Below are positions 6,001-9,000 of a stretch of 19,022 nucleotides of DNA, piece by piece; positions within the stretch are counted from its first letter, which is position 1; every line of letters starts with the position of its first letter. Where the stretch lies: IMG/VR virus record IMGVR_UViG_2718218402_000001, positions 1 to 19,022 of that record, one strand, 5' to 3'. Source of the DNA: a virus. Taxonomy: Duplodnaviria; Heunggongvirae; Uroviricota; Caudoviricetes. A program made the position numbers.

Positions 6001-9000
6001 AACCATCCGGGACCGTCTGGTCGCAGTACTGCCCGATGGCATACAGCGCCCACTTGTCAACATCCGCCGCCACCAGACGTTTTCCCATGCCGTAGCGCGG
6101 GTGAGTCAGCATGTCCCACAGGCACCAGGCCGGGTTGTTGCTGTATGCCGGTTTCAGGCTGCCGTCCCAGATGCCGCTGTACGTGCGTTTTTCCGGGTCA
6201 TAGTTTGACGGTACCTGGATGATGCGACCGCGGATATGGTAGTTCACCGTCATCTGCTGACCGCCAAACTGCTCCGCATCCACCTGCAGCCCCACAATGG
6301 CCGTGTTCGGGTAGCACTGTTTCACATCGATGATTTCGGTGTATGACGACCAGAGCGTCTTATTCTGCAGCTGGTCCGTGGTGCTGTCCGCCGTCTCCCT
6401 GACCATCCGGATGTTAAAGGGCCGGGGCGGCAGATTATCCAGAATCACCGACGCCAGGAACTGCGAGGTGGTCTTGCCGTTAATGGTGACATCCTTTTCC
6501 GTCATCCATTTACCACCACGCTCAAGCTGAATCAGCAGGCGGACAGACGTCGGGTTACGGTCACCCTTTGAGGTGGTCTCCACCAGTGACTGCACCCCGA
6601 AGGTAACCCGCAGGCGGTCAATGTTCGCGGACGTAATGGTGCGCGTCACCGGCTTTGCCTTCGTCACTTCCACGCCCAGTCCGGTTTCAGCTCCGGAGGA
6701 CTCAAAGCCTTCCGGTGGTGTCTGCTCCTGCTCCCCGGCACGCCAGACCGCAGTCACACCGTGTATCACGGGATTACCGTCCGTGTCCGTCAGCGGGGTT
6801 TTGTTCACCAGGATACTCTGCAGCCCCTTCACCGGGCCTTCTATCGGTCCCTCACCAATCGCATCAATCACACTCATCATCTGCGTGGATTTGAGATTAT
6901 CCTTCGCCTCTCGAGGCGTGTGCGCCCTGCCGCCACCTTTGCCCATAATGTTCCTCTCAATTGGTATTATTAATCGCAGTGATAGGATATTGCACAGCTA
7001 TTGCGCGATATCATCAGAACGCTGTTTGTTACCCTGTAACCAGCAAGCTCAGTCTGTTAACGGAATTAATGAGGGTTTTATGAAATGTAAAATCATTGCT
7101 GCCATTGCCATGCTGACAGCAGCATCATGCGGATACGCAGCAGAACAGGAAGTCCCAATGAACCTTGTCAGTGCTGACGGAAAAGAAGTCAGCATTGGAA
7201 AAATAACCATTCAGGAGACCCCCTACGGTCTGCTGTTCACACCAGCCCTTCACTCTCTGTCTGAAGGCATTCATGGTTTTCATGTGCACGAAAAAGGAAA
7301 TTGCGCCCCGGCACTGAAAGACGGAAAACCGGTCGCAGCATTATCGGCTGGCGGTCACTTTGACCCGAAAAACACCGGCAAACATCTTGGCCCCTGGTCT
7401 CCGGATGGACACCTGGGCGACCTCCCTGCGCTGTTCGTGACGCATGACGGAAAAGCGAACTACCCGGTCCTGGCCCCGAGACTGAACTCATTAAAAGAGA
7501 TTAAAGGGCGTTCTCTCATGCTTCATGCTGGCGGTGATAACCATCATGACCATCCGGAGCCCCTGGGCGGTGGTGGTGCGAGAATGGCCTGCGGCATCAT
7601 TCAATAATCAGTCAGGTAAGGGGCGGGCCCCTTACCTTTATTCCTCAGGACGATAAATCCTTTCTCCCTGAAAAGAACGGCACATCCTCCCTCTCTGAGT
7701 TAATGTTTTTGTCGTGACATAAGAATAATTCCTTACACTCAATCTTCGTAACGCTCCCGCAGTTCCTGTCCGTGAGCACTGCGGGATTTTTTCGCTTTTA
7801 TGCCTGCCGCCCGATAACCACCACCTTCCCGTCACCGCCTTCATCACGGGTACTGATGTCCTGGGATATACGGCGGGAGCCAACCAGCATTTCCCCGTAA
7901 GGCACCGGCATCGGGTTACCCTGGGCAATCATGTTGTCCAGTGACGAAAAGTACGTGTTCTGTCTGCCGTTATCCGTTGCGCGGTAATCCGGTGTTTTTG
8001 CCTTCGGGGCCAGCATCTGGGCCACACCACCCAGTATCATGCTGGCTCCAAGTGAAAACAGCATCGTGGTGGCAGAAAAACCACCGGCTGCCAGGGCTGA
8101 ACCCCATAACGCCATCGTTGCGCCGGCGGTGAAGAAAGAGCCCACGATGGCTGCCGCCCCCAGCACAATCTGCAGTCCACCCTTTCCGGCCCCGGCCAGT
8201 CGCGGCACAATGTGGATGACCGTTCCCTCACCCAGCTGTTCGTGAAGACGGGCGTACACCGCCTCCGGTGCCGTGTCATCACCGGCAATACGTATCTGGT
8301 ACCAGCCTTCGTTCATCTGACGGCGGAATCCGGGCACCTGTAACGACAGCGCCCGGATGGCTTCCGCTGCCGTGTTCACATACAGGCTGAGGCGGCGGCC
8401 AAATCGTTGTAAATCCCCGTGAAGGCAGATGCGTGCCAGTGGCGGTGACGCCAGACAGAATGCGTTCGTCGTTGCCATTTTTCGGAATACCTCTCCCGTT
8501 TACTCAGTTGTTCAGGCAGATGGTGAAGCAGCTCACCGTTGCCGCAGTAAATGGCGGCATGATTGGCCACCGATGCGCCAAAGCAGCACAGCAGGATATC
8601 GCCCGCCTGTGCAGAGGACAGGGGCACCCGGTAAAAGCCCGTTGCCTCCATATTGTCCAGGTACAGGTTCTGACCGTTGCGCCACCACTCATCCTCACGG
8701 TGAAAATCCGGCATCTCAATCCCCGCCAGATGGTATGCATCCCGGAACAGGGTGTAACAGTCCGTCACCCCGTGTTCAAAGCGCCGTCCGGTCAGGTGCG
8801 GAACGCAGCGGAATTTGTGAATGTCACCCCGGCTGACCAGCCACCAGGGCAGTGCGCTTTTTATCTGCAGCCGCCGGTCAGCCTCGCTCAGCCAGGGCAG
8901 ACCACCGGGATGACTGTGAACCAGCGCCACAATCTCCCCCTGCATCTCTGCCCGCAGCCAGTCTTCCGGTGCGATACGAAAATACGCCTCCGGCTCTGCG

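Follow-up and report, generated by a model that had tools for sequence, protein, structure and literature searches.

A sodC Moron and a Promoter-Less PasB-Family sRNA Remnant at the I–J Tail Gene Junction of an EHEC-Type Lambdoid Prophage

Tail Genes and sodC at the I–J Junction

The window, a stretch of 19,022 nucleotides from the IMG/VR record IMGVR_UViG_2718218402_000001, corresponds to the tail region of a lambdoid prophage of the EHEC type, whose late operon runs on the complementary strand. A combined ORF and Pfam search places the tail genes on the minus strand, with K, L, and M upstream of I, and confirms the predicted sodC gene on the plus strand between I and J, inverse to the tail genes (table 1). 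The spacer between I and J (6947–7797) measures 851 bp. In the RefSeq annotation of an identical locus the product of the J frame is named gpJ, and I starts at 8379, compared with 8478 for the longest ORF. The GC content of the sodC moron is 50%, against 57–60% in its flanks. A 44-amino acid minus-strand ORF (7645–7779), at the site of the Sakai tags ECs_1119/ECs_1988 that are now gone from the record, was rejected as a gene, since it spans the junction between cassette and backbone described below and is unannotated in RefSeq.

Table 1. Features at the I–J junction of the window
Feature	Position	Strand	Basis or remark
J, tail tip/host-specificity gene, 1157 aa	3473..6946	-	ORF; 7 J-specific Pfam domains including Ig_J, FNIII-A_GpJ, Phage-tail_3, Ig_GpJ_C
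Upstream (divergent) region of sodC, 133 nt, 39.8% GC	6947..7079	+	expected to hold the sodC promoter
Shine-Dalgarno of J, GAGAGGA, 5 nt before ATG	6952..6958	-	read from the sequence
sodC-F1 allele, exported Cu,Zn superoxide dismutase precursor, 175 aa	7080..7607	+	Sod_Cu, E 3.9e-32
Intrinsic terminator of sodC, 10-bp stem, GGGC loop, TTTATT tail	7614..7643	+	terminator scan, folding
Tail of the sodC cassette, at the position of the PasB promoter in sodC-less relatives	7644..7685	+	alignments
Promoter-less PasB/EcOnc22-family sRNA gene body, the "second terminator"	7694..7795	+	covariance model
I, tail assembly gene (longest ORF)	7798..8478	-	Lambda_tail_I, E 5.6e-16

The Sod_Cu domain (Pfam PF00080) is matched over profile positions 3–133 of 133 with 111.9 bits against a cut-off of 28.9, and solved bacterial SodC structures, including chains of Salmonella SodCI and E. 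coli SodC, match the protein at E values from 9e-63 to 1e-56. None of the metal ligands has been lost: the translation contains the Cu ligands H68, H70, H93, and H149 and the Zn ligands H93, H102, H111, and D114, assigned by the general Cu,Zn-SOD motif, together with the disulfide pair C75/C171 and the active-site R168, and the histidine-containing blocks align with the H. ducreyi SodC structure. An N-terminal export signal, a signal peptide with an AASC lipobox-like motif, precedes the domain, and the gene has its own ribosome-binding site, as predicted (GAGGG, 4 nt upstream of the ATG).

The nucleotide sequence of the gene is identical to Sakai ECs_1989 and differs from ECs_1120 by a single change at 7414 (T/C, Leu/Pro). 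Since the whole spacer is identical to that of Sakai Sp10, the gene is the characterized sodC-F1 allele. Its expression in lysogens, H2O2 phenotype, enzyme properties, and lipid modification have been described (D'Orazio et al. 2008, PMC2569942): purified SodC-F1, the same protein as encoded in the window, has superoxide dismutase activity, SodC-F is processed by signal peptidases I and II and partitions between periplasm and membrane, and sodC-F is expressed in log phase. The gene is a lysogenic-conversion (moron) gene in inverse orientation between I and J, as had been proposed from the sequence, and it is identical to an experimentally characterized sodC-F of O157:H7. This part of the locus is ordinary and already known; being a textbook case whose exact sequence has been studied before, the sodC moron adds nothing new in itself. 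Among complete E. coli genomes, 546 of 5426 encode sodC with both flanks. A scan of genome contigs with SodC-F for the origin of the cassette gave as nearest matches chromosomal SodC proteins (Serratia, Pseudomonas, and others) at no more than 68% identity and in uninformative contexts.

The divergent region between J and sodC is present as described, with a length of 133 rather than 134 nt. A strict promoter scan of 6500–8300 found none, so a looser position weight matrix (PWM) scan with a random-window background was written. The best sigma-70-like candidate for sodC is TTGGTA (6961–6966) with a 16-nt spacer and TAGGAT (6983–6988), with a moderate score of 7.4 that exceeds the 90th percentile of random windows. 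In a lacZ fusion, 299 bp of DNA upstream of sodC-F act as a promoter independently of rpoS (PMC2569942). A PhoP-box-like motif was sought by eye upstream of sodC, with no convincing match. Two successive plus-strand terminators had been predicted, and both were recovered: the stem of the sodC terminator (7614–7637, followed by TTTATT) folds at -17.4 kcal/mol (z -2.2), and the second stem (7755–7786, followed by T6 at 7787–7792) at -16.1 kcal/mol (z -2.4). A T run is missing after both hairpins on the minus strand, so both terminate plus-strand transcription only. The scan of 6500–8300 yielded seven terminator-like sites against 1.7 expected, and the sole minus-strand site between I and J is weak, with a 6-bp stem, and lies inside sodC.

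The I–J Spacer in sodC-Less Relatives and the Second Terminator

The original prediction took lambda, in which J directly follows I, as its baseline and described about 850 nt of inserted DNA. This baseline is wrong for the lineage, which already has a 240-bp I–J spacer with an antisense sRNA gene. I and J are present and sodC is absent in 148 of the 150 matching phage records, and the spacers of sodC-less relatives (JLK-2012, PhiR5_1, E2348/69 PP6, Sakai Sp11/14/15, and others) measure 233–343 bp, with 240 bp in the nearest ones. Comparison with these prophages, through two alignments (A1 and A2) and a MAFFT alignment of nine spacers, sets the cassette boundaries at 6946/6947 and about 7685/7686. 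Only this cassette of about 739 bp is absent from the nearest sodC-less relatives, it replaces about 130 bp of their sequence, and the 112 bp adjoining I (7686–7797), including the second hairpin, are backbone shared with them. The Shine-Dalgarno of J falls within the cassette and outside the backbone; the J leader differs in sodC-less relatives (CATTACATCACCTCTTACC), and that of Fels-1, a sodC carrier, is similar to the one in the window.

The shared backbone contains the whole transcribed part of an sRNA gene. PasB of EPEC E2348/69 is an 83-nt, northern-validated, Hfq-dependent sRNA (Pearl Mizrahi et al. 2021, PMC8550237, table S6), and mapping its published coordinates and northern probe places it at NC_011601 1466343–1466261, within the spacer of PP6 and in antisense orientation to I and J. 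Sequence homologous to 7686–7797 is present in sodC-less relatives, and the PasB probe maps to the I–J spacer. E2348/69 PP6, Sakai Sp11/14/15, and four other genomes share this layout. Hfq peaks named EcOnc22/23/24 lie in the sodC-less spacers of Sakai Sp15/14/11 (Tree 2014, PMC4104026), and EcOnc22, like PasB, is expressed as an Hfq-dependent RNA of 83–85 nt (PMC4104026, PMC8550237). By coordinate calibration EcOnc22–24 are probably the Sakai equivalents of PasB; the coordinate shift was anchored on AgvB1 and STnc100/EcOnc06, with Rfam matches used as anchors only, and a further anchor, PasA/EcOnc51, was dropped as ambiguous, there being two PasA-like elements 150 nt apart. PasA, PasC, and PasD were rejected as candidates because they are located in the Q-lysis region, outside the tail region, and HnrS (EcOnc10–12) is a different sRNA. 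No Rfam family covers the element, either in the whole window at gathering thresholds or in the sodC-less spacers at E values up to 1, and the locus is not mentioned in Hücker 2017.

A covariance model built from five other PasB-family variants matches the window over model positions 1–98 of 98 (64 bits, E 2.3e-10); the same search gave no match in Fels-1 or Gifsy-2. The element sits at the I-proximal end of the spacer, antisense to the tail operon, and retains a single-stranded ATCTT core (7742–7746), the terminator stem (7755–7762/7779–7786), and the T6 tract. Across nine variants neither the stem CCCGCAG/CTGCGGG nor the ATCTT core changes, and the loop ranges between 11 and 16 nt; as the stem never varies there is no compensatory covariation, and conservation is the sole support for the structure. 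About 66% of aligned columns are shared with E2348/69 PasB, the identity to the JLK-2012-type variant is about 99%, and the sodC-linked copies are all nearly identical to one another.

What is missing is the promoter. PasB is preceded by TTCACA-16-TATAAT, which matches at 11 of 12 positions and scores above every random window (PWM 13.5 in E2348/69), and both its -35 and -10 elements are kept in all eight sodC-less spacers; in the window they are replaced by cassette sequence, with homology beginning just downstream of the -10. Upstream of the remnant (7643–7715) we found no sigma-70-like site, the best PWM score being 2.05 against a random median of 4.17. A start set by TTCACA-16-TATAAT would give a PasB RNA of about 98 nt, about 15 nt longer at the 5' end than the published 83 nt, which were estimated from read coverage. 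If another, weak PasB promoter with the -10 sequence TAATGT (7701–7706) were the real one, its -10 would still be in the window.

The second terminator, which had been left unexplained and counted with the sodC insert, is the invariant terminator of a PasB-family sRNA. Because the whole PasB body and its terminator remain and only the promoter side is replaced, it belongs to the ancestral backbone and was not brought by sodC. Its strand and orientation, shared with sodC, and its position directly before the end of I would also suit a dedicated terminator acquired along with the sodC cassette or evolved to serve it. Every sodC-less I–J spacer examined has the hairpin, with an invariant stem, together with some 80 nt of the sequence upstream, and there the hairpin ends a promoter-bearing sRNA gene; Fels-1 sodCIII occupies the same position without such an element; an origin with sodC is therefore extremely unlikely.

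With its promoter missing, and with no Hfq-CRAC peak listed at the sodC-linked Sp4 and Sp10 copies under the one growth condition analyzed (Tree 2014, PMC4104026), the remnant is probably silent or made solely by read-through of the sodC terminator. It would act at most as a back-up terminator. An alternative is that the element still works as an sRNA and now derives from the sodC mRNA: RNA polymerase would partly read through the sodC terminator and stop at 7792, possibly with RNase E processing, such that an independent phage sRNA was rewired into a 3'-UTR-type sRNA coregulated with sodC. The full transcribed body, the invariant single-stranded core, and the terminator are all kept, the junction separates the -10 box precisely from the transcribed part, and the U tract of the sodC terminator is short and interrupted (UUUAUU), with the element about 50–70 nt downstream on the same strand. 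Against this, the sodC hairpin is strong at 10 bp, the peak is absent from Sp4 and Sp10 despite log-phase expression of sodC-F, and retention may be a mere scar of recent recombination, as the near identity to the JLK-2012-type variant suggests. We consider a working sRNA of this kind unlikely. That the sodC insertion itself turned the PasB-family sRNA into a read-through or 3'-UTR-derived sRNA tied to sodC transcription seems distinctly doubtful; if true, an sRNA with its own constitutive promoter would now be made under the host-associated conditions that induce SOD, a natural case of sRNA promoter swapping through moron insertion.

Expression of J and the Proposed History of the Locus

Of the two routes originally proposed for the expression of J, late transcription reading antisense through sodC stands as the most plausible, and a promoter in the divergent region found little in its favor. 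A promoter dedicated to J within or close to 6947–7079, independent of late read-through, would be consistent with the AT-richness of the region and with two weak minus-strand matches, GTGCAA-18-AATAAT ending at 6966 (score 6.1, the best within the region) and TTTACA-16-TTAATT from 7091 to 7064 (score 8.3). Both scores fall in the range of random windows (90th percentile 6.7 and maximum 11.5 for 133 nt), the strict scan is empty, and J is needed only along with the other tail proteins. In the sodC-less relatives, moreover, a terminator-like hairpin on the sense strand immediately precedes J, in keeping with Q-antiterminated read-through being the usual mode of this lineage. A separate J promoter is accordingly very unlikely, and the Q-antiterminated late transcript that reads antisense through sodC is the most likely source of J expression.

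Taken jointly, we think it probable that a sodC moron took over the PasB promoter side of the I–J spacer and left a promoter-less sRNA behind, with J expressed from the late transcript. The ancestral junction would have been a 240-bp spacer with an Hfq-dependent PasB-family sRNA gene antisense to the tail genes, its strong sigma-70 promoter near J and its terminator abutting the stop codon of I. The moron would have entered in the same orientation as the sRNA, bringing its own upstream region, Shine-Dalgarno, signal peptide, Cu,Zn-SOD domain, and intrinsic terminator as well as a new ribosome-binding site for J, and replacing the stretch from the J start codon through the -10 box of the sRNA promoter, inclusive. 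From the distribution we infer the direction of this event, with sodC replacing the promoter rather than a promoter module replacing sodC. The outcome would be sodC with its terminator and, 50–70 nt further on, a complete sRNA body lacking a promoter but with a terminator of its own, which accounts for two plus-strand terminators in succession.

In the lysogen, sodC is expressed autonomously to give a periplasmic, partly lipid-anchored, dimeric SOD, as published work on the identical gene has shown. The remnant would be silent, or made only when RNA polymerase passes the moderately U-poor sodC terminator, and its hairpin may serve as a fail-safe that keeps sodC transcription out of I, K, and L in antisense. 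J would be translated from the long Q-antiterminated late transcript, which would cross the spacer antisense to sodC and meet no minus-strand terminator there apart from the weak site inside sodC.

Meaning and Comparison with Known Systems

What is new about the locus is a minor point, the orphaned sRNA. Among EHEC/EPEC lambdoid phages the I–J junction serves as an sRNA locus; about a quarter of complete E. coli genomes have it, none of the listed records annotates it, and prophages carrying sodC keep a promoter-less copy of the sRNA behind that gene. Surveys of PasB-family copy number would include such non-expressed copies, and the reading of transcriptome signal downstream of sodC-F is likewise affected. 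The locus may serve as an example of a moron insertion disabling or rewiring a resident regulatory RNA.

The closest known loci are those of O157:H7. The 851-bp spacer of sodC-F1 (Sakai ECs_1989, Sp10) is identical to that of the window, in the same place and orientation, and that of sodC-F2 (Sakai ECs_1120, Sp4) is one nucleotide away, the Leu/Pro change at nt 335 of the gene; around the spacer, the prophage in the window is a different mosaic and has nleB2 downstream. PasB of E2348/69 and EcOnc22/23/24 of Sakai share position, strand, terminator stem with T run, and ATCTT core with the copy in the window, which differs in lacking TTCACA-16-TATAAT and in lying behind the sodC terminator; for the sodC-linked copies no expression has been reported (Tree 2014, PMC4104026).

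In Salmonella, Fels-1 sodCIII (STM0924) likewise encodes a Cu,Zn-SOD and lies in inverse orientation between I and J, and the leader immediately before the J ATG is similar, but the amino acid identity is 60.5%, the intergenic DNA is unalignable, and the gap of 53 bp between sodC and I contains no PasB-like element. Gifsy-2 sodCI (STM1044; 58.8% identity), whose regulation is PhoPQ-dependent, is also an inverted prophage Cu,Zn-SOD moron in the tail operon, but lies between lom/M and L and not between I and J. As with the lambda morons bor and lom, late-region units that each combine promoter, gene, and terminator, sodC is an extra gene between genes that are adjacent in relatives, with its own signals, expression from the prophage, and a GC content lower than that of its flanks; it differs from them in being inverted to the late operon and in having landed in an existing sRNA locus instead of a tight gene junction.

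Gene order of the tail region and the sodC gene

The window covers the late and tail region of a lambdoid prophage and, by its ORFs and Pfam matches, is written antisense to the late operon. The same evidence upholds the original prediction of a sodC gene between I and J and on the strand opposite to them. The sodC product matches the whole Sod_Cu profile of Pfam (E 3.9e-32) and solved bacterial SodC structures (E down to 9e-63), and a Shine–Dalgarno sequence, GAGGG, lies 4 nt 5' of the ATG. Loss of Cu/Zn ligand residues had been named as a possible refutation; the translation retains every Cu and Zn ligand, the cysteines of the disulfide and the active-site Arg, so this objection does not apply.

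Features of the tail region and the I–J spacer
Feature	Position	Strand	Basis or property
NleB2, T3SS effector of SseK/NleB family	1-981	-	expected Pfam family; nleB2 in identical RefSeq locus
Tail fibre		-	ORF, expected Pfam family
Ail/Lom protein		-	ORF, expected Pfam family
J	3473-6946	-	ORF, expected Pfam family
sodC	7080-7607	+	175-aa product, between I and J
First terminator hairpin	7614-7637, then TTTATT	+	-17.4 kcal/mol, z -2.2
Second terminator hairpin	7755-7786, then T6	+	-16.1 kcal/mol, z -2.4
I	7798-8478	-	ORF, expected Pfam family
K	inside ORF 8376-9380	-	ORF, expected Pfam family
L	9130-9828	-	ORF, expected Pfam family
M	9828-10157	-	ORF, expected Pfam family

The 851-bp spacer between I and J (6947-7797) is identical to that of prophage Sp10 of E. 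coli O157:H7 Sakai (ECs_1989), and the Sp4 spacer (ECs_1120) is one base apart, at 7414 (nt 335 of the gene, Leu/Pro). This substitution is the one described as distinguishing sodC-F1 (Leu) from sodC-F2 (Pro) (D'Orazio et al. 2008; PMC2569942), and the window carries Leu, as sodC-F1 does. Lysogens express the sodC-F genes during log and stationary growth and under anaerobiosis; a lacZ fusion of the 299 bp upstream is rpoS-independent, deletion mutants show an H2O2-sensitivity phenotype, and the enzyme is dimeric, stable and split between periplasm and membrane via an AASC lipobox-like signal (PMC2569942). Both the arrangement and the exact sequence of the window are already known and characterized, and, of 5426 complete E. 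coli genomes, 546 carry sodC together with its two flanks.

The nleB2 gene forms the end of the tail region and is followed in the RefSeq record by nleC and nleH pseudogenes and nleF, a second, effector-type cargo region of the same prophage. The tags ECs_1119 and ECs_1988, between I and sodC, are absent from the current Sakai record; in their place lies a 44-aa GTG-start ORF (7645-7779, minus strand), which is probably spurious because it spans the junction of cassette and backbone.

Cassette boundaries and the PasB family

Two successive plus-strand terminators had been predicted 3' of sodC, and both hairpin and T-run sites were recovered, the stated coordinates being right; read on the minus strand, both lack a T run. 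They differ in origin. Among 150 phage records matching 6700-8100, 148 match the I and J flanks only. The I–J spacer is ~240 bp in JLK-2012, PhiR5_1, the EPEC E2348/69 prophage PP6 and the Sakai prophages Sp11, Sp14 and Sp15, with a wider range of 233-343 bp among sodC-less spacers. Lambda, where I and J are adjacent, had been assumed as the baseline for this junction and is therefore not the appropriate one. Comparison with these sodC-less prophages, proposed in the original prediction for defining the insertion, places its boundaries at 6946/6947 and ~7685/7686: in the alignment 6947-7685 (739 bp) stands in for ~130 bp of ancestral spacer, while 7686-7797, with the second hairpin inside it, belongs to the shared backbone and is nearly identical to JLK-2012. 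Only the former part of the supposed ~850-nt insert is absent from the relatives. The cassette has a GC content of 50% against 57-60% in J and I; its left junction is the J start codon, and it supplies the J Shine–Dalgarno sequence, GAGAGGA. Both junctions lie at functional boundaries, the right one where the –10 box of an sRNA gene gives way to its transcribed sequence; this fits modulewise mosaic exchange, yet could be chance.

That the second hairpin belongs to sodC as its own terminator is contradicted by the sodC-less relatives, which share it. It belongs instead to the published PasB sRNA family. PasB is an 83-nt Hfq-dependent sRNA of PP6 (NC_011601 1466343-1466261, minus strand), which was validated by northern blot with the probe AATCCCGCAGTGATCGCGGAGCT and also shows activity in RIL-seq (Pearl Mizrahi et al. 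2021; PMC8550237, table S6). Its interval lies inside the PP6 I–J spacer beside the I stop codon, antisense to the tail genes (1262-1344 of the PP6 locus, L004), and the probe is complementary to the PP6 hairpin homologous to the second hairpin of the window. Nine spacer variants share an invariant stem (CCCGCAG/CTGCGGG), a T run after it and, in unpaired sequence upstream of the stem, an ATCTT core; the terminator loop ranges from 11 to 16 nt. As the stem never varies, the support is conservation and not covariation. Five variants, the window's own subtype excluded, were used to build a covariance model, whose sole match in the window is at 7694-7795 (full model, 64 bits, E 2.3e-10).

Of 5426 complete E. 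coli genomes, 1375, many of them non-EHEC, carry homologues of 7686-7797, at 1960 sites in all. The element is matched by no Rfam family and carries no annotated feature in any of 30 genome records among the matches listed. In E. coli OkiPb01677 (L017, ~100-476) two PasB-like copies lie in tandem proximal to I, and both have a promoter-like TTCACA as well as terminator motifs. As no J lies inside the adjoining 400 bp, the spacer also occurs in other rearranged forms.

The Hfq-CRAC peaks EcOnc22, EcOnc23 and EcOnc24 lie on the plus strand in Sp15, Sp14 and Sp11, with a northern band of ~85 nt that is destabilized in an hfq deletion (Tree et al. 2014; PMC4104026, table S2). On the current Sakai map all three sit within I–J spacers at an equal relative offset (Sp15, ~1337-1427 of locus L008; Sp14 and Sp11, loci L012 and L013). 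The published positions follow an earlier version of the sequence, and a shift of ~+137 nt, calibrated at two anchors (AgvB1 at 1.94 Mb, STnc100/EcOnc06 at 3.49 Mb), puts the peaks on the PasB-homologous body. PasB and EcOnc22-24 thus appear to be one family, an equivalence that depends on this shift; the link was not found in the literature searched and appears to be a new detail.

Promoter loss and expression of the spacer

The E2348/69 sRNA is preceded by TTCACA-16-TATAAT (11 of 12 positions matched), with a PWM score of 13.5, above any of 400 random windows, and both boxes are kept in 8/8 aligned sodC-less spacers. Homology of the window to this locus starts just 3' of the –10 box, the cassette tail occupying the box positions, and no promoter candidate in 7643-7715 scores above 2.05, which is under the random median of 4.17. 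The window accordingly has the whole sRNA body and terminator without the promoter. Judged from sequence, the sodC cassette took away the sRNA promoter and left the body intact, a new detail not found in the literature searched. Tree et al. (2014; PMC4104026) list Hfq peaks at the promoter-bearing copies of Sp11, Sp14 and Sp15 but none at those linked to sodC in Sp4 and Sp10, which is consistent with promoter loss, as absence of evidence in one data set. The strong promoter predicts a start ~15 nt upstream of the published PasB 5' end, which is a read-coverage estimate; should transcription in fact begin from a weak promoter with TAATGT (7701-7706) as its –10 box, that box is still present in the window.

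In our model sodC is an autonomous moron, reported to be expressed in the lysogen, whose terminator halts most plus-strand transcription. The PasB-family remnant would be silent or produced only by read-through, and its hairpin may act as a fail-safe against antisense transcription entering I-K-L. The remnant body lies 50-70 nt beyond the sodC terminator on the same strand, and the U tract of that terminator is short and interrupted. The most interesting reading, in which sodC read-through now drives a functional sRNA, is an unlikely one.

J would be translated from the Q-antiterminated late transcript, since a single weak terminator-like site (6 bp) is all that the minus strand shows between I and J, an antisense unit is a constant feature of this spacer in the lineage, and a terminator-like hairpin on the sense strand precedes J in sodC-less spacers. 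This hairpin, with TTGTTTTTG, is seen just 5' of J at 1431-1454 (+) of L004, with homologues in L008 and two further sodC-less loci (L001, L003); only Q-antiterminated polymerase would pass it efficiently, and in the window the cassette replaces it. A promoter of its own for J is very improbable: J-directed promoter-like matches exist, but their PWM scores (6.1 and 8.3) fall inside the random-window range.

Comparison with Fels-1 and Gifsy-2

The PasB-family covariance model gave no match in Fels-1 or Gifsy-2. Gifsy-2 carries sodCI between lom/M and L, unlike the I–J site of the window, whereas the Salmonella phage Fels-1 carries sodCIII (60.5% identity) likewise inverted between I and J. The J leader of Fels-1 is also similar to that of the window, whereas those of the sodC-less EHEC phages differ.
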